Assembly (NCBI GenBank): GCA_964353135.1
Contig: CAYGTV010000001.1
Coordinates: 216,217 to 280,216, forward strand
Source of the DNA: an uncultured Candidatus Saccharibacteria bacterium
Lineage (GTDB): Bacteria > Patescibacteriota > Minisyncoccia > Phycocordibacterales > UBA918
Reading direction: 5' to 3'
DNA length: 64,000 nucleotides
Position 1 is the stretch's first letter. Each line of letters starts with the position of its first letter. Positions 53,331 to 63,390 of this stretch are shown piece by piece. The position numbers and the translations under genes were made by a program. Under the pieces are notes generated by a model that had not been told where the DNA came from, ran no database searches, and saw only the letters and a program-made list of their open reading frames with translations.

Positions 53331-54389
53331 TTACCGCAAGTGTCTTTCAATATTAATCAGGTGCTGATCGTAGGTTTCTGCGTAGTAGAACTCTCCATCG
53401 TTGCCAGTGATGTAGTAGAAGTAGTCTGATGGGATTGGGTTGATAATTGCTGCAATCGCGGTTTCACCTGGGTTTCCAATTGGGGTTGGCGGTAGGCCAG
53501 GATTTAGGTAGGTGTTGTAGGGACTGTCTAGCTCCCTCAGTTCAGCAGCTAGTTGCCCTGGTGGCAGGCCACCTAGTGGAGTTTCAAGTGCGTACTCGAT
53601 TGAAGCGTCGGCTTGTAGCGGCATACCAATCGCGAGGCGGTTAAGAAAGATACCAGCTACCGTTCGCATGGATTCAGGAGAGTTAGCCTCTCGTTCTAAA
53701 ATTGATGCCAGGATGAGTACTTCTTCTCTGGTAAGGCTGCTATCAGCAATTGCTTGTCCGTATTTCTCCACTACTTTTTGGTGCGTTGTCTGTAACAGCT
53801 CAACTAATTCTTCAGTCGTATAATCTGGCGGTACTCGATAGGTGTCTGGAAATAACTGCCCTTCCAAATTTGAAGTCAGCGATTCAAACAAACTTTGATC
53901 AAAGCTGTTTAGGGTTGCTGTGGCACGAGCCCCAAAAGCCGCCACGCTTTCACCTTCAATAAAAGTGATAGAAATGAGGTCATTATTAAACTCCCCAGCT
54001 ATTATTTTTTCTGCTACTGCAAATACATCCAATGGCTCGGTAAAGCTATATGTGCTGGCTTTGATTTGGGTCGGGTCCTGCCAATATCGTAACACTGCAA
54101 ACAGTAAGTGTTCGGATTGCACAACGTTGGCTTCAGCTAGTTTTGAGGCTATTTGCATGACACTCTCACCTGGTTCGATCACCACTGTTTGTGGTGTGAA
54201 GTCACTCGGGGCTGTATGCCAAAAATAGAATAGAGCACCCATCAGTAGTAGGGGTGTAAATAACAGGATGTCGAACAATACGAACCAAACCCAAAACCGT
54301 GTATTGGATACCGGTATAGGTAACGAGCTGTTTGGTTGAGCTTGATTTGGGTCAAAGGGTTCTAGCTGTGCTGGCTGGTCGGGTTCCAT
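53331..54389 (-). CDS. mltG: endolytic murein transglycosylase MltG (YceG-like)
   Basis: N-terminal TM, C-terminal SPYNTYLNPGLPPTPIGNPG signature. Confidence 0.8.
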   Translation of the reverse strand: MEPDQPAQLEPFDPNQAQPNSSLPIPVSNTRFWVWFVLFDILLFTPLLLMGALFYFWHTAPSDFTPQTVVIEPGESVMQIASKLAEANVVQSEHLLFAVLRYWQDPTQIKASTYSFTEPLDVFAVAEKIIAGEFNNDLISITFIEGESVAAFGARATATLNSFDQSLFESLTSNLEGQLFPDTYRVPPDYTTEELVELLQTTHQKVVEKYGQAIADSSLTREEVLILASILEREANSPESMRTVAGIFLNRLAIGMPLQADASIEYALETPLGGLPPGQLAAELRELDSPYNTYLNPGLPPTPIGNPGETAIAAIINPIPSDYFYYITGNDGEFYYAETYDQHLINIERHLR

Positions 54390-54392
54390 AGA

Positions 54393-55778
54393 CTAGAAAG
54401 GTAACTCACCCACCGGCAAATTGCCAGGTGCGTTTTGTCGCTTGGATGCGATTCGGGACAGTCCGGGGGTCAGTACTGAGCTGCCTGGGATATGGTAAAT
54501 AGTTGCTAGTTCCTCAACTGACATGGTTTTTGGTTGGTGGATGTCGTTTACTCGTCCTGTACCAGCCCAATACTTTCGTAGCTTGAAGTGTTCCACCTCC
54601 TCTTTTTTACGGGCGATTTTTTTTGCACCTGTCACGTCCTCGTACCAACTGTTGTCAAAGTCAGTTTTCCAGCGTGGCGCCAAAGAGTTGCGGCCAATGA
54701 CACTATACTGAGTAAACACACCAAAGGTTGGAGCAATCATAAGTGGATTGAACTGCGTTTTGTCGAGAGTTACATACATTGTGCGGATTGCAACGTCATA
54801 TGCAGGTTTGCTGATATTCCTTTCGATGGCAGCAATGGTGTCGCGCTCCCCTCCCGTAAGCATCGGACGGCTCTCTGTTTCTTCAGCTGTGCTCTGACCC
54901 TTATCGTCACGCCCCATCATTTCATTGATAGCTTTCTTTGCATCTTTTTCCCAGGTACCTTGCTCGCGCAGGTATCCATTGGCCAGATTTTCTTTGGCGT
55001 GAGGGGTACACAAAATTTGAATATATACTCGTTCGTGGGGTTTAGCTTTAGATAAAAACTCGATCGTAGCTGACATTGGTTCAAACTTCTCTTCTTCTTT
55101 GATTGGACGATCGTGTCCAAATTCTATGTAGGTTTTGATCGGATAAATGCTGTCCTCTTTTTTGATTACATGGAAGCCCATCATGTCCATCTTTTCAGGG
55201 TCCCATTGTAATTCTGATGCGTAATCTAACAACTCTTCTTCGATTTCTATTCCTGGGTAATTAGCATACAGCTGTGATTCCATGACGTCCTTTAGTTTGC
55301 TTGGTACATTGATGTAAAAACGTACCTCGCCACCAATTGAGGCTAGCTCTAGGCTGATAGGTTGCTTACCTTTGCCGTCTAGATATGCCTGAGATAGGTT
55401 ATCTGGGTTCATGGGAGCAAACACGTAGGTAAAGACACTTTCCATCGCCTCTGGGGATTTCAGGACCTCTGGTGGTAGTTTAATTCGCAAGGTCGTTCGT
55501 CCCATTTTGTAATAGAACATAGTGCGGACAAAATCCATCCAGCGGTCATAGGTCAAATAAAACAGCACCACAGGTAGAAAGAGTGGCAGTAAAAACAGTG
55601 CCAGTGAAATCGCAGGCAAAAACGCAATGTCAGACCCTCGGACAAAAAACCAGTACACTAATGCAATTACTCCAAAACAAAGTGGAATAGCAATTGCAGC
55701 AAAAGCTCCGGTAAAGACATCCTTCATGTGTGTATATTGTAGCATCAGACAAACAAAAACGGCGTGAACTATGTCCAC
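54393..55778 (-). CDS. hypothetical membrane protein (461 aa; N-terminal TM helices, large soluble domain)
   Basis: No recognised motif. Confidence 0.5.
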   Translation of the reverse strand: MDIVHAVFVCLMLQYTHMKDVFTGAFAAIAIPLCFGVIALVYWFFVRGSDIAFLPAISLALFLLPLFLPVVLFYLTYDRWMDFVRTMFYYKMGRTTLRIKLPPEVLKSPEAMESVFTYVFAPMNPDNLSQAYLDGKGKQPISLELASIGGEVRFYINVPSKLKDVMESQLYANYPGIEIEEELLDYASELQWDPEKMDMMGFHVIKKEDSIYPIKTYIEFGHDRPIKEEEKFEPMSATIEFLSKAKPHERVYIQILCTPHAKENLANGYLREQGTWEKDAKKAINEMMGRDDKGQSTAEETESRPMLTGGERDTIAAIERNISKPAYDVAIRTMYVTLDKTQFNPLMIAPTFGVFTQYSVIGRNSLAPRWKTDFDNSWYEDVTGAKKIARKKEEVEHFKLRKYWAGTGRVNDIHQPKTMSVEELATIYHIPGSSVLTPGLSRIASKRQNAPGNLPVGELPF

Positions 55779-55804
55779 GTCGTTTTTGATTTCAGTTCCC
55801 TTGT

Positions 55805-56830
55805 TTACTCAGCGATGGTGTATGTTCCGTTTGCTAATTTCTTGAACAGATTTCCGTCCTGAAGGTTTACGAGAATAGTGTTGTCTTTCACGTATCGTTC
55901 TTTTCGTACTTTGTCGATGATTTCTTCTCTAGAAAGTGGGCCTTCAGCTTCTAGGATTTCTTTGAGCACTTCTTTGACTACTCCGGCTGTGTATCCCCAT
56001 TCTGAAAGTGCGTACAATCCCCGTCCAACTAGTACAAATCGCGCGTCTTTGATTAGTTCGTTATGAGTGGTCGCGATGTGTGCCTTGTGGTCGAACAGTT
56101 CGTTGATTGTTTGTGCTACTTCTTTGAAGTGCATCGGTGATCCGTGTCGCTTTACCGCTAGGTATGCGTAGTCCCGGATTCCTTTGACTCGGATATTTGG
56201 ACTGTCAGATGGTCCCCAGTCTCCTAGGGGGTTTTGTCCGATTTGCTTTGAAATCTTGAGCCATCGCATCAATACTTCTTCGTTATGCTGCTCAGCAATT
56301 TCTGCTAATTCGGCCTTAAATCGACTAACGATTTCTGATTCACTGACTAGTTCGTCTCGCTTAAGAGATTTTCGAACTGCCCGCAGGGCCTTCTCAACCT
56401 CTTCAACTTTCTTGTGCTCGGTGAACCATCGGTGGGCGTAGTGCGGGTTTTCCTTGCTTCGATAGAAAGGATCACCAACTACTAGTAAGAAATAGAGATG
56501 ATTTCGTACCAGCGGATCAGACGATAGTTCGTCTAGCAGAACATGTTCTGCAATCAAACCGCCTCCTAGCTCATCGATCAGTTTATGCATCTCGATTAGT
56601 AGGTCGTACTGCTTTTTGTATACATCTGACTTTTGGATTGATTGAATCCCGTAGTTTTCAATCTGTCGTACACGCTCGCGGGTAATCCCGTAGCTTTGTC
56701 CGATCGCTTCGAGCGTAAAAGTCTCACCGTCTTTGTTAAGACCGTAGCGTTTTTGTAATACATCACGAGCACGCTCAGGGAGGGCTTCAAGCAATGCGGT
56801 AGTTACTTGTTCTGGTTTAAATGAAATCAT
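55805..56830 (-). CDS. sigma-70 region-4-like HTH domain protein, hypothetical
   Basis: N-terminal LPERARDVLQKRYGL...TLEAIGQSYGITRERVRQIE resembles sigma70 region 4; remainder unassigned. Confidence 0.5.
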   Translation of the reverse strand: MISFKPEQVTTALLEALPERARDVLQKRYGLNKDGETFTLEAIGQSYGITRERVRQIENYGIQSIQKSDVYKKQYDLLIEMHKLIDELGGGLIAEHVLLDELSSDPLVRNHLYFLLVVGDPFYRSKENPHYAHRWFTEHKKVEEVEKALRAVRKSLKRDELVSESEIVSRFKAELAEIAEQHNEEVLMRWLKISKQIGQNPLGDWGPSDSPNIRVKGIRDYAYLAVKRHGSPMHFKEVAQTINELFDHKAHIATTHNELIKDARFVLVGRGLYALSEWGYTAGVVKEVLKEILEAEGPLSREEIIDKVRKERYVKDNTILVNLQDGNLFKKLANGTYTIAE

Positions 56831-56930
56831 ATCTCTAATTTTTAAGGGGTCCGTTGGTGGACTGACCTCAATGCGTAGCTACATTTATAACATGTGTGTG
56901 TAAAAAGGTCAACACCTGTGTGCGTGGGTA

Positions 56931-59825
56931 TTACTTCATGATAAAGTTAAGGATTCGTCCCGGCACGTAAATGGTTTTTACGATCTCTCCTTCAGCCAAT
57001 CTAGCCAGTAATTGTTGGTTATTCTGAGCCTCGGCAACAGCGGTCGCCTCGGTAGCATCTGGTGCAATGGTGATGTCTCCGCGTACCTTTCCATTAATCT
57101 GTACGCCGATTGTTACGGCTGAATCCTTAGCCAATTCAGCATCAAAGGTTGGAAAAGCACTTGTGTGGATACTCTCACTTTTTCCATGATCTCGCCAAAG
57201 CTCTTCAGTAAGATGTGGTGCAAACGGGGATAATAGCTGCAAGAATGTTGCGTATGAGTCGTCAGACAACCCCTCTTTTTCAGCAGTGTTAATGAAGATC
57301 ATCATGGCAGACACAGCGGTGTTGAACTTAAAGGCTTCGATATCCTCGCTGACTTTCTTGATGGTTTTGTGGAGTTGGCGGATGGTCTCCGTTGATTCTT
57401 CTACATCTCCATCTAATACGTGCTCATTGAGTCCGTTTACCCGTTCTAAGAAGCGTCTGGCACCCACCAACCCATCTTGCGACCAGGCAATGGTGTTTTC
57501 AAAAGGTCCCATAAACATTTCGTATACCCGGAGTGTGTCAGCACCCACCAACTCAACTATGTCATCTGGATTGATCACATTCCCCCACCGTTTCGACATC
57601 TTGCGCCCATCCTCTGCCAAGATAAACCCTAGGAATTCCAGTCGTTGAAATGGTTCAAGGGTACTGACAACCCCCTCATCGTAGAGGAACTTGTGCCAAA
57701 ATCGCGCGTAGATGAGGTGACGCACAGCGTGGTCGCCTCCCACGTACACATCAACCGGCTGCCAAGCTTTTTCAAGCTCAGGGTCAACTAGGGCCTGGTC
57801 ATTCTTTGGGTCTATGTAACGCAAGTAGTACCACGACGAACCGGCCCATTGTGGCATGGTGTTGGTTTCGCGTTTGGCTTCGATTAGGACCTGACCGTCA
57901 GGTGCGCTATCTGCTACAACGAAGTCTCCAGATTCATTTACATATCCAGTCACGTTTACCCAGTTATCAATTTTAGCTAGTGGCGATTGTCCGTCGCCCG
58001 CTGGCTCGTAGTGGTCTACTTCAGGCAAAGTAACTGGCAGTTGTTCCAAGGCAATCGGGTACACAGTTCCGTCAGCTGTATGCACAACCGGGATTGGTTC
58101 ACCCCAGTATCGTTGTCGTGAAAATACCCAATCTTTTATCTTGTAGGTTTTAGTCATTCGACCGCCAACTTTTTTTACGATAGCTGCTTTTGCTTCTTCT
58201 GAGTCCATGCCGTCGAATTCTGCTGAATCAACAAGAACCCCAACGCCACAATGAATCTCATTATTTTGGTATGCATTCCAAGCTCGAGTGTGCCACTTCC
58301 ACGTAATTAACTCATCGACATTTTCTTTTGGAACCCACTCAACAGTATGCTTCCCTTCATCTATTTCTGACTCAATCTGTTCCAGGTCATTTAGTTTAAC
58401 GTGGTAAAAACCAGAGATCCCCTGCTGGTTAATTCCTTTACTGTGTCGATAGCCAACTGACTGGGTTCTAAAAATACACTTTTCCGTTACAAACTGGAAT
58501 TTAGAATATCCTGTTTCTTCCAGTAGTTCTCTAGCTACGGCTAACTTATCTTCCTCTCCGTCAGTTCCTCCACCAACAAAGTGAACCAGATCGCGATCAC
58601 CGTCCTTTTCTCTCTGCAGTAAGAAAGTCCCATCTGTTGGATGTTCAATAATTATATCTATACACGCTCTAGAAGGATTAGTTTCAACATTAGTTTTAGG
58701 CGCATCGGGCCCTTCACCATAAAAGATTGGTGCTATTACTTGCTTAATCTCAATCCCAAATTTCTTCGCAAAAGCAAAATCCCGTTCATCGTGTGCGGGT
58801 ACAGCCATGATGGCACCAGTTCCGTAGCCAGCAAGGACGTAGTCGGCGATATAAACCGGGATCTCTTCCCCACTCGCTGGATTAGTGGCAGTAATTCCTT
58901 CTAATTTCACCCCGGTCTTTTCTTTGGTGTCGTCGAGACGATCCATTTCCTTTTTGTTCGCAGCTTCTTGTATATAAGCCTCGACTTCTGTCCAGTTGCT
59001 GATTGATTCCTTATGTTTGATCACTAGCTCGTGTTCAGGAGCTAACACCATGTACGTCGCACCATAGAGCGTATCAGGGCGGGTTGTAAATACAGACACA
59101 GTCTCGTCCACTGACAATTTGAAGTCAATTTCTGCCCCTTCGCTACGTCCGATCCAGTTTCGCTGGGCTTCTTTGATGTGCTCTGGCCATTCTAGCTTGT
59201 CGAGGTCCTCTAGCATTCGATCAGCGTACGCACGGATGTTGAGCACCCACTGTCGCATTGGGCGCTTTTCAACGAGGCTGTCGCAACGTTCACACGTACC
59301 ATCGCTTTCGAGGTCTTCGTTAGCCAAACCTGTTTGACAACCCGGACACCAGTTGATTGGCTCGTGACTTTGGAACGCTAGGTCTTTTTTCAAAAGCTGG
59401 ATAAAGATCCATTGCGTCCACTTATAAAACTCTGGGTCGGTGGTGTTGATCTCGCGCCCCCAGTCATAGTCAAAGCCAAGCTTTGCTAGTTGTGACTTAA
59501 AATTAGCGACGTTTTTTTCTACCGCTGCTCTAGGGTGGACCTTATTTTTGATCGCATAGTTTTCTGCTGGTAAACCAAACGCGTCCCAGCCCATTGGGTG
59601 CAACACTTCATGCCCGGTCATTCGCTTGAACCGACTATAGATGTCAGTGGCGATATAGCCCTTGGGGTGACCAACGTGCAGCCCTTCACCAGATGGATAC
59701 GGGAACATATCGAGCACAAAGCACTTTGGTTTGTCCGAGTCAGACTCGGTAGTATAGATACCACTATCAGCCCAGTCTTGCTGCCATTTTCCCCCGATTG
59801 CTTTGTGGTCAAACTTTCTATGCAT
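56931..59825 (-). CDS. leuS: leucine--tRNA ligase carrying an inserted Nudix hydrolase domain
   Basis: HVGH (HIGH) and KMSKR motifs, editing-domain TTRPDT and AVPAHDERD; ~165 aa insert between IKQVI and DSAEFDGMD containing Nudix box GGGTDGEEDKLAVARELLEETGY. Confidence 0.9.
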   Translation of the reverse strand: MHRKFDHKAIGGKWQQDWADSGIYTTESDSDKPKCFVLDMFPYPSGEGLHVGHPKGYIATDIYSRFKRMTGHEVLHPMGWDAFGLPAENYAIKNKVHPRAAVEKNVANFKSQLAKLGFDYDWGREINTTDPEFYKWTQWIFIQLLKKDLAFQSHEPINWCPGCQTGLANEDLESDGTCERCDSLVEKRPMRQWVLNIRAYADRMLEDLDKLEWPEHIKEAQRNWIGRSEGAEIDFKLSVDETVSVFTTRPDTLYGATYMVLAPEHELVIKHKESISNWTEVEAYIQEAANKKEMDRLDDTKEKTGVKLEGITATNPASGEEIPVYIADYVLAGYGTGAIMAVPAHDERDFAFAKKFGIEIKQVIAPIFYGEGPDAPKTNVETNPSRACIDIIIEHPTDGTFLLQREKDGDRDLVHFVGGGTDGEEDKLAVARELLEETGYSKFQFVTEKCIFRTQSVGYRHSKGINQQGISGFYHVKLNDLEQIESEIDEGKHTVEWVPKENVDELITWKWHTRAWNAYQNNEIHCGVGVLVDSAEFDGMDSEEAKAAIVKKVGGRMTKTYKIKDWVFSRQRYWGEPIPVVHTADGTVYPIALEQLPVTLPEVDHYEPAGDGQSPLAKIDNWVNVTGYVNESGDFVVADSAPDGQVLIEAKRETNTMPQWAGSSWYYLRYIDPKNDQALVDPELEKAWQPVDVYVGGDHAVRHLIYARFWHKFLYDEGVVSTLEPFQRLEFLGFILAEDGRKMSKRWGNVINPDDIVELVGADTLRVYEMFMGPFENTIAWSQDGLVGARRFLERVNGLNEHVLDGDVEESTETIRQLHKTIKKVSEDIEAFKFNTAVSAMMIFINTAEKEGLSDDSYATFLQLLSPFAPHLTEELWRDHGKSESIHTSAFPTFDAELAKDSAVTIGVQINGKVRGDITIAPDATEATAVAEAQNNQQLLARLAEGEIVKTIYVPGRILNFIMK

Positions 59826-59885
59826 ATACCCAATGATTACCCGTTAAAGAACAATCATTGTGCCATTGAGAGAGGGGTTTGTAAA

Positions 59886-60149
59886 TTATTTTGTAAAGAC
59901 AAAAGCTGTTGATCCTACTGTGATTAATGTAGTAACAATAGTCGATGCAATCAAAATCAGCCAAAATTTAATCGATTGAAGTGTTCGTTTATCTATCTGA
60001 GCGTCAGCGTACTTTTGAACCTTTTCCATGAATGGTACAGAGTCTACCCTTTCGTCTATAATGTTGCAGACTCTAACTCGCCAATCATCGTGAGAAATAA
60101 GCTGAGTTGCCTTTTCGTCAATAAACTGTTTAATCTCAGCTTCGTTCAT
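59886..60149 (-). CDS. small membrane protein, hypothetical
   Basis: 87 aa, C-terminal TM. Confidence 0.4.
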   Translation of the reverse strand: MNEAEIKQFIDEKATQLISHDDWRVRVCNIIDERVDSVPFMEKVQKYADAQIDKRTLQSIKFWLILIASTIVTTLITVGSTAFVFTK

Positions 60150-60151
60150 GA

Positions 60152-60400
60152 TTATTGTTTTGTTGTCTTAGCTTTTTCTTTATTAGAATTATCCATCATA
60201 ACTTGATAGACCATTTTAATTGCAACTCGAACAGCCACACTGTATCTTGTAGCTTTCGGCATTTTTGCAAGTGTGTCTTGATCTTCATCTTTTTCAAAGT
60301 GTTGAACTAGAAAACTAATTTGTTCTAGTTCCTCACCAGAAAAGACCAATTCTAAACTGTCTTGACCATCAACCTCTTCAAATTTACTTTTTACAGCCAT
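60152..60400 (-). CDS. hypothetical small protein
   Basis: 82 aa ORF directly upstream of 59886 ORF. Confidence 0.4.
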   Translation of the reverse strand: MAVKSKFEEVDGQDSLELVFSGEELEQISFLVQHFEKDEDQDTLAKMPKATRYSVAVRVAIKMVYQVMMDNSNKEKAKTTKQ

Positions 60401-60423
60401 TTCACTTATTTTACCCCATTTTT

Positions 60424-61347
60424 TTAACTACTCAAGTTCTTCATATCCTCATCAATCACCCGGTCAAAGCACCAGTCGCCGGCTTTGTAGTTCCAGTTGT
60501 AGTTGTTGCGCATGATGCTGCTGTCAGCGACTGGCATCGGTCGATATTGTTGTTGTAGCTCGTTTACGTCGTAGTTAAACGTGGTGCACAGCTGATACTC
60601 TGTCTCGCTGGTTGGAGTGTAGCTGTACTCAGCCAGTTCGGCAGTTACCGGGGGCAGGTCGAATTCACCATATACCTCCTCAAGGGTTGCTGGGAGAGCT
60701 TCATTGGCTCGGTAGTAGTCTTCTACACGCCACTGGATGTCTTGAAGGATACCGACCATTTCATTGTCAGCTTTCATTTCACGGACTGTGCTGGGGTTAG
60801 GGATCTGGGTCAGGGACATAATCATGGTGGCGGCAACAAGTACGGTTACTACTGCTGCATATATGTACGACTGTCGTTCGTGCTCCAGCCAGTACCCTTG
60901 GGCGTCTTTGATGTAGTAGAAGAAGGCTGCGCCGGTTACCACTGCTACAGCTAGTGCTTTGAGGATAAACCGCATAGTCAGTTCACCTTCGAGTAGCCCC
61001 ATCACTACAACCGCCAGATCAACCAGTAGTGTAATACCGGCTACCAGTAGTGACAGATAAATCAACCATTTGGTCAGACCGAGGTAGTGACTGTCGTCAC
61101 TAGTGCGGCGGTTTTTGTTAACCATGCGGGTGAGCACTAGATAAGTTGGGAAAAACACCAGTACCATGGCAAAGCCCAGTCGGACGCTGCTGGCGGCGCT
61201 TTCGATTGCCCATACGCCGTCTAGCGCGTCTGGGAAGCGTAGATTAATGAGTCCAAAAGAAAGGACTAAGAAAAATGCGATTGATAAGTACAGTGCAACC
61301 AGCGAACCCAATTGCAGGACAAAATGTTTTGCGGTGTGATTGTTCAT
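60424..61347 (-). CDS. polytopic membrane protein, hypothetical
   Basis: 307 aa, about 6 TM helices then soluble C-terminal domain. Confidence 0.5.
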   Translation of the reverse strand: MNNHTAKHFVLQLGSLVALYLSIAFFLVLSFGLINLRFPDALDGVWAIESAASSVRLGFAMVLVFFPTYLVLTRMVNKNRRTSDDSHYLGLTKWLIYLSLLVAGITLLVDLAVVVMGLLEGELTMRFILKALAVAVVTGAAFFYYIKDAQGYWLEHERQSYIYAAVVTVLVAATMIMSLTQIPNPSTVREMKADNEMVGILQDIQWRVEDYYRANEALPATLEEVYGEFDLPPVTAELAEYSYTPTSETEYQLCTTFNYDVNELQQQYRPMPVADSSIMRNNYNWNYKAGDWCFDRVIDEDMKNLSS

Positions 61348-61408
61348 ATACTTTTATATTACTCCTGTGTAAGGTAAAAAGAAACAGCCTGCTGGTGTGG
61401 CAGGACTG

Positions 61409-61627
61409 TCATTCTTTTGTTATTCGCTTACCCAATGGCGGTAAAGCGGGTAATAAGCGCTCTACACGAGCGTCTTGGAACTTTTTCCTCGCTCGAGAGA
61501 CCCTTGCCACTTTGTTTGGCGGTTTGGGTTCCTTAGCTGATGTAGCAATGGTGCTACGAACAAGGTCCCGGACAGTGTCATCTTTTGCTTTCATCCAAAG
61601 TACTCCTTTCAATAACCAGACTAGCAA
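61409..61627 (-). CDS. small basic protein, hypothetical
   Basis: 72 aa, Lys/Arg-rich; start uncertain. Confidence 0.35.
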   Translation of the reverse strand: MLVWLLKGVLWMKAKDDTVRDLVRSTIATSAKEPKPPNKVARVSRARKKFQDARVERLLPALPPLGKRITKE

Positions 61628-61648
61628 AATTTGCTATACTAGCCAAAT

Positions 61649-61918
61649 ATGAAAAAAGAAGATCTTAAAAAAGCGCCAAAAGTTTTTTGTGAAAGTATTA
61701 ACGTGGCATTTACCCCTGAATACTTTGTACTCGCTCCTGCATCAGGAAACCAAGCCACCATCTATACCCTCACACCACAGCACGCCAAGCGACTCCAGCA
61801 GTACCTTACCCATCAAATCAATGAATTTGAATCAAAAAATGGCGTCATAGACGCCAAATGGGACCCCAACATTGTGAGTCCAGTTCAAAGGGTGAATCCT
61901 CCAAGAGAGCTTAGTTAG
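61649..61918 (+). CDS. hypothetical protein (89 aa)
   Basis: TATACT -10 element 8 nt upstream of ATG. Confidence 0.4.
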   Translation: MKKEDLKKAPKVFCESINVAFTPEYFVLAPASGNQATIYTLTPQHAKRLQQYLTHQINEFESKNGVIDAKWDPNIVSPVQRVNPPRELS

Positions 61919-62216
61919 TTTCTTCGTCCACCTGCAGCTCTGCGTCCAATTCATCGTCAGTAGACGTACCGGTGCTGGACGCTTGTAGTGCAGCTTCGGC
62001 TGCTAGCCGGGCCGCTTCCTCTGAGGCAGCCTTTTCCTCTGGAGTCATAATGCTAAATGTGTTTGGAATTGGTTGTACAGCCGGCCTGGAAATACTGTTT
62101 TGGTTTAGATCAGGAGCAATTGCAGCTTCTGGTTTAAATAAGTAGTTAACCGCTGTAATTACTACAACGCCAAGAACGATAACTCCAACAATTCCAAAGA
62201 TGACAGTTTTATTCAT
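61911..62216 (-). CDS. small membrane protein with acidic C-terminus, hypothetical
   Basis: N-terminal TM helix. Confidence 0.4.
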   Translation of the reverse strand: MNKTVIFGIVGVIVLGVVVITAVNYLFKPEAAIAPDLNQNSISRPAVQPIPNTFSIMTPEEKAASEEAARLAAEAALQASSTGTSTDDELDAELQVDEETN

Positions 62217-62289
62217 TGCTCAAAGTATATCAGAGAAAATGCAAAACGAGCACCAGAGTACTCGTTTTGTTTAAGTCACCAGGTTATTG

Positions 62290-63390
62290 CTACGAGTGCA
62301 TAAATTCGATTACATCGCCGTCCTGTACGATGTACTCCTTCCCTTCAGTTCGTAGTTTGCCGGCTTCTTTGGCGGCGGCTTTACTTCCGGCAGCCACTAG
62401 ATCCTCAAACGCAACTACTTGCGCCCGAATGTATTTTGTTTGGAAATCGCTGTGGATGGCCGCTCCGGCCTGAGGCCCGGTGCTACCGATCGGTACCGTC
62501 CAGGCTCTGGTTTCTTCTGGCCCAGTGGTAAAGTAGCTCATCAGTCCTAGTCCGTCATAACATGCCCGAATCAGCCCTTCTACACCACTACCCTGCGCAC
62601 CGTACTCTCGGCGGAAGTCATTTTTTTCTTCCTCATTCATGTCTTTTAGCTCGTGCTCCATCCCGGCGTCTACCGTTACATACTCTGAACCAGTTGATTC
62701 AAAGAATTCTACTAGCTCTCGCCAACGGTCGTCGTTTTGTTCGTCTAAGTTAAAAGCGTCTTGTTTTTTATTGCAAACGTACAGAAACTTTTTGAGTGTA
62801 AGCAGGTTGAGACTTTTGATAATTTTCTTTTCCTCTGTAGTCATCTCGAGGCTGTTGGCTAGGTGTCCAGCATCTAGGTGTACCAGTAGTCGCTCTAGCA
62901 GCGCTTTTTCAGCAATAGCGTCTTTGTCGCCCTGCTTGGTGCCTTTTTCTAGCCCACCTATTCGCTTACTGATACTTTCGGCATCAGCCATGATCAGCTC
63001 CAAGTTGATCACCTCGATATCACCCATTGGGTCTACCTCACCTGTAACGTGATGGATGTCAGAATCCTCAAAAATTCGCACCACCTCGGCGATCATGTCA
63101 GTTTCGCGGATGTTTGCCAAGAACTTATTCCCTAGTCCTTCACCAGCTGACGCACCCTTTACCAGTCCAGCAATATCCATAAATTCCACGATGGCAGGCA
63201 AGATTTCCTTTGAACCACTGATGCTCGCGAGCGTTGCTAGTCTGCCGTCTGGTACAGGAATAACCCCAACCGATGGGTCGATAGTGGCAAACGGGTAGTT
63301 TGCCATCAGGACTTCATTTTTGGTAAGGGCGTTAAATAGGGTTGATTTTCCAACGTTTGGTAAACCAACGATTCCGACAGATAAACTCAT
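62290..63390 (-). CDS. ychF: ribosome-binding ATPase YchF (Obg-family)
   Basis: G1 GLPNVGKST, TGS-domain C-terminus GKEYIVQDGDVIEF. Confidence 0.9.
   Translation of the reverse strand: MSLSVGIVGLPNVGKSTLFNALTKNEVLMANYPFATIDPSVGVIPVPDGRLATLASISGSKEILPAIVEFMDIAGLVKGASAGEGLGNKFLANIRETDMIAEVVRIFEDSDIHHVTGEVDPMGDIEVINLELIMADAESISKRIGGLEKGTKQGDKDAIAEKALLERLLVHLDAGHLANSLEMTTEEKKIIKSLNLLTLKKFLYVCNKKQDAFNLDEQNDDRWRELVEFFESTGSEYVTVDAGMEHELKDMNEEEKNDFRREYGAQGSGVEGLIRACYDGLGLMSYFTTGPEETRAWTVPIGSTGPQAGAAIHSDFQTKYIRAQVVAFEDLVAAGSKAAAKEAGKLRTEGKEYIVQDGDVIEFMHS

Follow-up and report, generated by a model that had tools for sequence, protein, structure and literature searches.

Aminoacyl-tRNA synthetases are among the most conserved enzymes. 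In eukaryotes they have acquired additions such as the WHEP, GST and EMAPII domains, and the CP1 editing domain is itself an ancient insertion; in bacteria, extra domains are rare and usually fixed within a lineage. In this work we have analysed leuS, the leucyl-tRNA synthetase (LeuRS) gene in a stretch of 64,000 nt from a bacterium of the candidate phyla radiation, on contig CAYGTV010000001.1 (positions 216,217 to 280,216; hereafter the window, on which all coordinates are based), whose product carries a Nudix domain nested in CP1. Like the synthetases with appended domains, this LeuRS has gained an extra folded domain and kept its core motifs. Unlike them, it bears a predicted second enzyme within the editing domain, and this module, which we call the cassette, varies between strains and exists in several unrelated types. 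The literature that we searched by full text holds no Nudix-LeuRS architecture, no Nudix-synthetase fusion and no hypervariable insert in a LeuRS editing domain. This agrees with the initial annotation of the locus, made from the letters of the DNA, which knew of no LeuRS built in this way, although such proteins are common in the databases. The parts are known; the nested architecture is undescribed, and the dynamics of the cassette are unusual for an essential gene.

We propose that a working LeuRS carries, in a surface loop of CP1 that varies naturally, a complete Nudix pyrophosphohydrolase of some 160 residues. In this reading the domain lies outside the synthetase mechanism and is an accessory cassette, widespread in the LeuRS of Patescibacteria (the candidate phyla radiation, CPR) and under purifying selection within a type. 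Strains gain, lose and exchange it by homologous recombination, with the highly conserved leuS sequence on either side acting as homology arms. Tethered there, it may cleave a pyrophosphate bond close to LeuRS; dinucleoside polyphosphates, NTP-type compounds and RNA ends that are capped or 5'-polyphosphorylated are the candidate substrates. LeuRS would contribute its constitutive expression and might also bring the domain near ATP, adenylate or tRNA chemistry. We hold the structural and evolutionary part of this proposal with high confidence. The substrate class, the pyrophosphate bond of a polyphosphate-bearing nucleotide, is a tentative assignment, and the proposal taken whole, from a nested accessory Nudix exchanged by recombination to the hydrolysis of a polyphosphate nucleotide near LeuRS, appears to us reasonably likely.

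By its domains and motifs the window protein is a bacterial LeuRS, with a class I core, a LeuRS-type editing domain, and anticodon-binding and C-terminal tRNA-binding domains. It resembles the LeuRS of Thermus thermophilus (1H3N) and those of the Escherichia coli family (4AQ7/4ARC) in its class Ia core with the HIGH, KMSK and ZN1 CxxC...CxxC elements, in a CP1 with the Thr-rich motif and the conserved Asp, and in its anticodon-binding and C-terminal domains. The match to 1H3N (E 5e-205) consists of three aligned stretches that span residues 4-963, and the Pfam domains are PF00133, PF09334, PF13603 (209 bits), PF08264 and PF00293. The parts of the gene that matter here are the following.

56931..59825, minus strand: open reading frame (ORF) of leuS, a bacterial-type leucyl-tRNA synthetase with a Nudix cassette, 964 aa plus stop, from the ORF list and Pfam
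59667..59678, minus strand: HIGH signature HVGH of the class I catalytic core, aa 50-53, with H50, G52 and H53 invariant in 71 aligned relatives
59070..59087, minus strand: Thr-rich editing motif TTRPDT of CP1, aa 247-252, placed by motif position
58779..58823, minus strand: CP1 editing-site block GTGAIMAVPAHDERD, aa 335-349, which includes Asp346 and aligns to the Thermus block GTGAIMAVPAHDQRD
58245..58730, minus strand: Nudix cassette of type T1, aa 366-527, a complete Nudix domain with an N-terminal extension, in place of the variable CP1 loop
58131..58244, minus strand: C-terminal part of CP1 resuming past the cassette, aa 528-565, beginning GVGVLVDSAEFDGMDSEEAK, which aligns to Thermus residue 380 onward
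57588..57602, minus strand: KMSKR loop of the catalytic core, aa 742-746, with K742-K745 invariant in the 71 aligned relatives

Within the same 71 relatives, T247, T248, R249, D251 and T252 of the Thr-rich motif are invariant whether the cassette is present or not, as are G335-G337, H345 and D346 (the Asp of AHD) of the editing-site block. The motif G-x-G-x-L-x-(N/D)-S, where CP1 resumes, is also common to relatives with and without the cassette. Pfam, the 1H3N alignment and this invariance all uphold the initial reading of a LeuRS with canonical class I and editing motifs, and no second LeuRS ORF lies within the 64-kb window. The full-length AlphaFold2 model (pLDDT 85.3, pTM 0.73) gives the insert and both its junctions scores of 91-97, and its low-confidence segments are 42-52, adjoining HIGH, 733-751, the KMSK loop, and 775-780.

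In the alignment with the Thermus enzyme, residues 4-365 of the window protein match Thermus 3-363 and residues 528-737 to Thermus 380-579, and some 162 cassette residues occupy the site of a 16-residue loop (363-380) in the C-terminal half of CP1; the leucine-specific insertion of Thermus (about 579-638) has no aligned counterpart in the window LeuRS. The initial annotation had placed an in-frame Nudix domain between the blocks ...IKQVI and ...SAEFDGMDSEEAK, which Pfam (PF00293), the 1H3N alignment and AlphaFold2 bear out. Its location of the insert stood, and its limits had to be moved slightly, from 58236..58733 and about 165 residues to 58245..58730 (aa 366-527, about 162 residues). The residues at the two junctions are ...KQVIA followed by PIFY... 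and ...GVGVL followed by VDSAEF..., and the plus-strand translation of 58236..58733 has many stops. A side feature of the same protein is a Cys-free hairpin, VTGYVNESGDFVVADSAPDGQVLIEAKRE, at aa 625-653 (57867..57953). A CxxC hairpin occupies this place in 64 of 120 close relatives, and in other LeuRS the position doubles as an alternative site of Nudix insertion.

Profile and model together identify the insert as a true Nudix-superfamily domain with an intact catalytic motif. PF00293 matches aa 389-506 with 36.6 bits (E 5.5e-9; gathering threshold 21.1), and the isolated insert reaches 39.2 bits against the same cut-off of 21.1, so that the profile check proposed with the initial annotation came out above threshold. 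AlphaFold2 modelling of residues 362-533 from a 37-sequence alignment (pLDDT 96, pTM 0.90) predicts the alpha/beta/alpha Nudix fold, with the box on a loop-helix-loop. Four motifs stand out in the cassette.

58623..58652, minus strand: T1 family motif IIEHPTDGTF, aa 392-401, in the first strand of the Nudix sheet, invariant in a three-sequence alignment of type T1
58506..58574, minus strand: Nudix box GGGTDGEEDKLAVARELLEETGY, aa 418-440, fitting G-x5-E-x7-R-E-U-x-E-E-x-G-U at every position
58425..58451, minus strand: Tyr and basic hairpin YRHSKGINQ, aa 459-467, downstream of the box in the loop region of the Nudix specificity motifs
58347..58370, minus strand: acidic motif SEIDEGKH, aa 486-493, a candidate extra metal or catalytic loop, the three aligned sequences agreeing at S, E, E, G, K and H

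The box lies exactly where the initial annotation had seen it. Its catalytic-motif residues are E424, R432, E433, E436 and E437, it sits on helix 426-438 of the AlphaFold2 model, and nothing else in the window matches in any of the six frames, even when the pattern is relaxed. The motif IIEHPTDGTF, which served as the pattern for the GTDB search, is kept in most GTDB loci. The three-sequence alignment shows no variation at Y, R, H, K, N and Q of the hairpin, whose Tyr lies 17-19 residues past the box. Altogether 61 positions of this alignment are invariant, among them the box, IIEHPTDGTF, Y-R-H-x-K-x-x-N-Q and S-E-x-x-E-G-K-H. Even in the comparison with the closest orthologue, saturation of the synonymous sites (pS 0.70-0.77) precludes a dN/dS ratio; the nonsynonymous distance is 0.13 for the insert and 0.074 for the rest of the protein, the insert evolving about 1.7 times faster than the LeuRS body. 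Within its type the insert is, by these substitution patterns, clearly under purifying selection. Because of this selection, and because all the catalytic residues are kept, the window cassette is probably an active pyrophosphohydrolase.

Could the protein be unusually long because of a chimeric assembly, an intein or some other spliced element? The length itself is all that speaks for such an artefact, whose probability we regard as negligible, and the insert is predicted to have an ordinary Nudix fold with high-confidence linkers. A protein identical to the window LeuRS is present on a 380-kb public contig, and an orthologue with 87% identity (L023) has the same downstream neighbours, namely a sigma-70-r4/HARE-HTH protein, DUF8128 and YceG. 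A GTDB scan, with one genome per species, returned 19 species loci, all in metagenome-assembled genomes of Patescibacteria/CPR, with a Nudix match inside the LeuRS ORF or fragment in 19/19 and ORFs of about 940-1126 aa where complete. Among the 120 nearest LeuRS clusters at 90% identity, our comparison set, 85 have an insert of 140-170 residues at the window's site, and the other 35 have only a loop of 10-80 residues there; 16 cassette-less clusters in the listed ranking share 79-81% body identity with the window protein. With dozens of independent assemblies showing one architecture, and with conserved synteny, the chimera that the initial annotation had kept in mind is ruled out. The cassette does behave like an intein in being in frame within a housekeeping gene, in its presence/absence polymorphism between close strains and in its lower GC (41.2% against 48.3% in the rest of the window leuS, 7 points lower, the whole window having 45.4%; 35.0% against 41.7% for the gene body in a second locus, L024). 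It differs in having no Hint, endonuclease or splicing residues, in the predicted retention of the Nudix fold and in its well-ordered junctions; the absence of a Hint or endonuclease domain in Pfam (E <= 0.1) and the uninterrupted ORF dismiss an intein or spliced element.

The association appears, from the sequences compared, specific to LeuRS and Nudix. An exhaustive profile search of 1.84 billion representatives found no more than 274 relatives of the window's Nudix type, and 94 of the 149 examined have similarity to LeuRS, several of the remainder being LeuRS fragments too; no other synthetase is a host among the hits examined. Despite their abundance in sequence databases, the public annotation of these proteins is leucine--tRNA ligase only. 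A close relative that looked free-standing, P0129, proved to be a LeuRS fragment from an organism of genetic code 25, in which TGA is read as Gly. The locus, in ENA ERZ724526 (L029:2-616), has a T1-like Nudix in a LeuRS with four in-frame TGA codons at conserved Gly positions (LVNS*EFDG, EKE*FGKK). Under code 25 this frame is continuous, and the architecture thus extends to a lineage with TGA=Gly (Gracilibacteria or Absconditabacteria). The genuinely free-standing relatives (P0159, for example) are distant, and their gene neighbourhoods were uninformative; they have the same N-terminal extension as the cassette, which suggests that a whole protein was captured.

The cassette is not one element but a set of at least five very divergent Nudix types. 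The 85 inserts fall into five groups with a mutual identity of about 20-30%: T1, the window's type, in 34 clusters, T2 in 28, T3 and T4 in 10 clusters each, and T5 in 3. These types are discordant with the LeuRS tree, and nearly identical bodies can carry different cassettes or none:

P0044 and P0075, T2 versus no cassette, body identity 98.9%
P0018 and P0082, T1 versus T3, body identity 97.6%
P0034 and P0084/P0085, T2 versus no cassette, body identity 94.4%
P0007 and P0028, T1 versus T2, body identity 92.8%

At the nucleotide level, the loci L024 and L025 share one flank of 1418 nt with 98.2% identity and another of 2539 nt with 99.6%, and between the two a 480-nt Nudix cassette stands opposite an unrelated loop of 151 nt. 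The loci L028 and L027 are 95.7% and 97.9% identical around some 500 nt of no detectable similarity. In the first pair no mismatch is found farther than about 1 kb from the cassette, and in the second the density of mismatches is maximal beside the cassette and declines with distance. Such a decay is what the import of a recombination tract leaves behind. Within T1, the identities of cassette and body are uncorrelated (Spearman 0.07, 561 pairs), with 88% identical cassettes on 63% identical bodies in one case (P0004/P0093). Some of the contigs compared in pairs are short assemblies of single samples; three contigs from independent sources carry the cassette-less allele P0075, and the pattern is repeated in several independent pairs. 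Our comparisons of flanking DNA thus show cassette movement by homologous recombination via conserved leuS. Since near-identical strains lack the cassette, with leuS flanks 98-99.6% identical, it is, on this comparative evidence, dispensable for LeuRS, accessory and exchangeable.

Similar dynamics are known from the central domain of flagellin and from the target-recognition swaps of hsdS, where conserved ends enclose a recombining, hypervariable middle. The leuS locus shares with them the conserved flanks as homology arms, the unrelated middle alleles and the decay of mismatches away from the module. Flagellin and HsdS, however, are a surface antigen and a specificity subunit, whereas LeuRS is an essential enzyme of translation in the cytoplasm, with an enzyme domain as its module. 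In a rival explanation, the CP1 loop would be hypervariable under diversifying or balancing selection in a biological conflict, with Nudix domains that destroy, or in their degenerate forms bind, nucleotide toxins, inhibitors or signals affecting LeuRS or tRNA-Leu charging, or else interactions with phages or hosts. The presence, absence and swapping of modules between strains with recombination tracts, the decoupled histories of cassette and body and the lower GC of the cassette fit this explanation, as do the many divergent types, the multi-copy arrays and the catalytically degenerate copies. In addition, T3-T5 inserts (P0011, P0016 and P0049 among them) match the PADLOC candidate PDC-S07 with weak to moderate scores (E 1.7e-9 to 5e-4); the window's T1 cassette has no PADLOC match, though, and PDC-S07 may be a generic Nudix profile. 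Also against a conflict role, no Nudix, toxin, partner or defence gene adjoins leuS in the window or in L023, L025 and L027, and the cassette has no phage or viral sequence relatives. A phage origin was rejected, with no tblastn match in 50,697 phage records, no relative in IMG/VR and only generic Nudix matches in BFVD. On balance we judge a part in conflict or immunity unlikely. In its fullest form, LeuRS would be a conserved scaffold for horizontally exchanged and diversifying Nudix modules (several subfamilies, arrays of one to three domains, dead copies) that make up a strain-specific layer of immunity or detoxification. They might, for instance, destroy or sequester nucleotide toxins, inhibitors or alarmones that hit tRNA-Leu charging, or mend modified ends of tRNA or RNA that the editing domain presents. 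To this form, too, we give little credence.

The Nudix domains of LeuRS also vary in number and in catalytic motif. The full strict box pattern occurs in 48 of the 85 inserts, and among the remaining variants the R-E-x2-E-E core is mostly preserved. One degenerate pattern, with G-x5-Q and A-E-x2-E-E, recurs in about 17 of the 85. Other LeuRS have two or three Nudix domains, the extra sites lying after window aa ~212, 237-243, 583 and 636-652. In these multi-Nudix LeuRS or fragments of 923-1283 aa (L008:1315-4692; P0126, P0134, P0135, P0142, P0144, P0162, P0219 and P0258) the copies form tandems at the window's site or sit at the additional ones, and an intact box is often paired with a degenerate one. 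The degenerate boxes, which occur in these 17 or so inserts and often in one partner of a tandem pair, would suit a Nudix fold that is not catalytic and acts on CP1 as a ligand sensor, a tRNA-binding surface or a structural shield, and non-enzymatic proteins of this fold (mL46, the MutY C-terminal domain, NrtR, AraR) are among the structural matches. The window cassette and 29 of the 34 T1 members, however, keep every catalytic residue of the box, with a strict core, and a purely non-catalytic role is improbable.

A different explanation is that the loop is simply a permissive landing pad, which tolerates a compact domain with close ends. A housekeeping Nudix, engaged in nucleotide-pool sanitation or RNA 5'-end processing, would then ride in a constitutive essential gene of a streamlined genome, with no mechanistic link to LeuRS. 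The unrelated sequences of the cassette-less loops, from 10 to 80 residues long, the capture of a whole protein suggested by the shared N-terminal extension, and the dispensability of the cassette are what such a site would lead one to expect, and a Ser_hydrolase domain has been added in one relative. Yet apart from short loops, an 80-aa insert at the cassette site with no Pfam family reported (P0041) and this Ser_hydrolase (P0076), the inserts at the site are all Nudix. Nudix domains also occupy several other sites of LeuRS, up to three per protein, and no other host synthetase was found among the hits, which speaks against a merely tolerant loop. We consider a landing pad possible but on the doubtful side. 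The LeuRS with the added domain, P0076 (1147 aa), has Nudix plus PF06821 Ser_hydrolase, and P0253 is a fragment with Ser_hydrolase and Nudix; Ser_hydrolase is the only further Pfam domain family seen in these LeuRS proteins.

What does the tethered domain hydrolyse? No curated Nudix equivalog could be assigned, all NCBIfam matches being far under cut-off: the RppH equivalogs NF001938 and NF001936 give 24.8 bits against a cut-off of 116 and 22.3 against 118, and the MutT 8-oxo-dGTP diphosphatase NF008044 gives 14.2 against 148. Compared with NUDT2, the Caenorhabditis elegans Ap4A (diadenosine tetraphosphate) hydrolase, T. thermophilus Ndx1 and E. coli RppH, the cassette likewise scores far under the curated cut-offs, and it is not closer to ApnA (diadenosine polyphosphate) hydrolases than to other Nudix subfamilies. 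Weak NCBIfam similarity points to RppH for T1 and T2 and to NTP pyrophosphatases of the NudI/MutT type for T3 and T4, which suggests that one site captured different Nudix subfamilies. The first structural neighbour is 2AZW, a MutT/nudix family protein of Enterococcus faecalis, which is an independent protein, whereas the window domain is nested in another enzyme; after it, ApnA, Ap6A and diphosphoinositol-polyphosphate hydrolases rank among the top.

The initial annotation had suggested that the Nudix module could couple aminoacylation to Ap4A turnover. In that case the domain would clear the Ap4A or other Ap(n)N formed by LeuRS out of leucyl-adenylate and ATP. Ap4A is indeed a product of synthetases and is degraded by Nudix enzymes, RppH among them (PMC7705103, PMC10148737). 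The ranking of the structural neighbours, the basic hairpin and the repeated capture of Nudix by LeuRS specifically are in line with this idea, and the invariant Tyr of the cassette falls in the region of a marker of ApnA hydrolases, a Tyr in the X-loop about 17 residues past the box (Tyr87 in 1XSC numbering; PMC5389931). The two Tyr residues could not be brought into alignment, however: the hhalign alignment to human NUDT2, whose sequence was confirmed against 3U53, covers profile residues 38-81, the Nudix box, and leaves the Tyr outside, and 2AZW, of undetermined function (PMC5389931), likewise has a Tyr at that position. Other points tell against coupled turnover, namely the RppH-like and NudI/MutT-like cassettes at the same site, the degenerate boxes and the near-identical strains without the domain. 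Moreover, work by Goerlich and colleagues in 1982 is said to have placed LeuRS among the weaker Ap4A producers. Clearance of synthetase by-products thus seems to us a minor prospect, and the coupling is not supported as first put forward, given the lack of an equivalog assignment, the several subfamilies, the degenerate boxes and the strains that do without. A role in the hydrolysis of dinucleoside polyphosphates is possible. Obligatory coupling to aminoacylation is unlikely, because different subfamilies, degenerate boxes and strains without the domain mark the cassette as an accessory and not as an obligatory partner.

The site presents a second enzyme, by prediction, in a proofreading domain, conserved enough for function and yet variable among near-identical strains. 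If the module acts on dinucleotides derived from the synthetase, these bacteria would offer a natural system for the long-debated role of Ap4A; if it is a module of conflict or niche adaptation, core CPR translation genes would be able to host exchangeable accessory functions, and an immunity layer, if real, would represent a hypervariable region of a new type, driven by conflict and lodged in an essential housekeeping gene. For protein engineering, the loop is a naturally validated permissive site in the CP1 of LeuRS, and for annotation there is reason to drop the plain label "leucine--tRNA ligase" for these proteins.

The surroundings of leuS are themselves conserved across these CPR genomes. 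In the window (53331..63390) and in L001, L023, L025 and L027, leuS is preceded by a YchF GTPase, small ORFs and a DUF5671 membrane protein, and followed by the sigma-70-r4/HARE-HTH protein, DUF8128 and YceG, with a sortase in place of the usual downstream neighbours in L025. Away from LeuRS, a fusion protein of 1318 aa (P0152) with the order GNAT-Nudix-GNAT-M17 leucyl-aminopeptidase carries a Nudix domain akin to the cassette family (E 6.5e-14). Finally, on a 993-kb contig (JGI 3300056599, L001:9227-12057), leuS is broken by frameshifts into five ORFs, although its neighbours are all intact; this split gene could be a pseudogene or reflect indel errors of long reads. Its cassette is nearly identical to that of an intact gene (L012), and the N- and C-terminal parts of its LeuRS are closer to a more canonical LeuRS lineage than that of the window.

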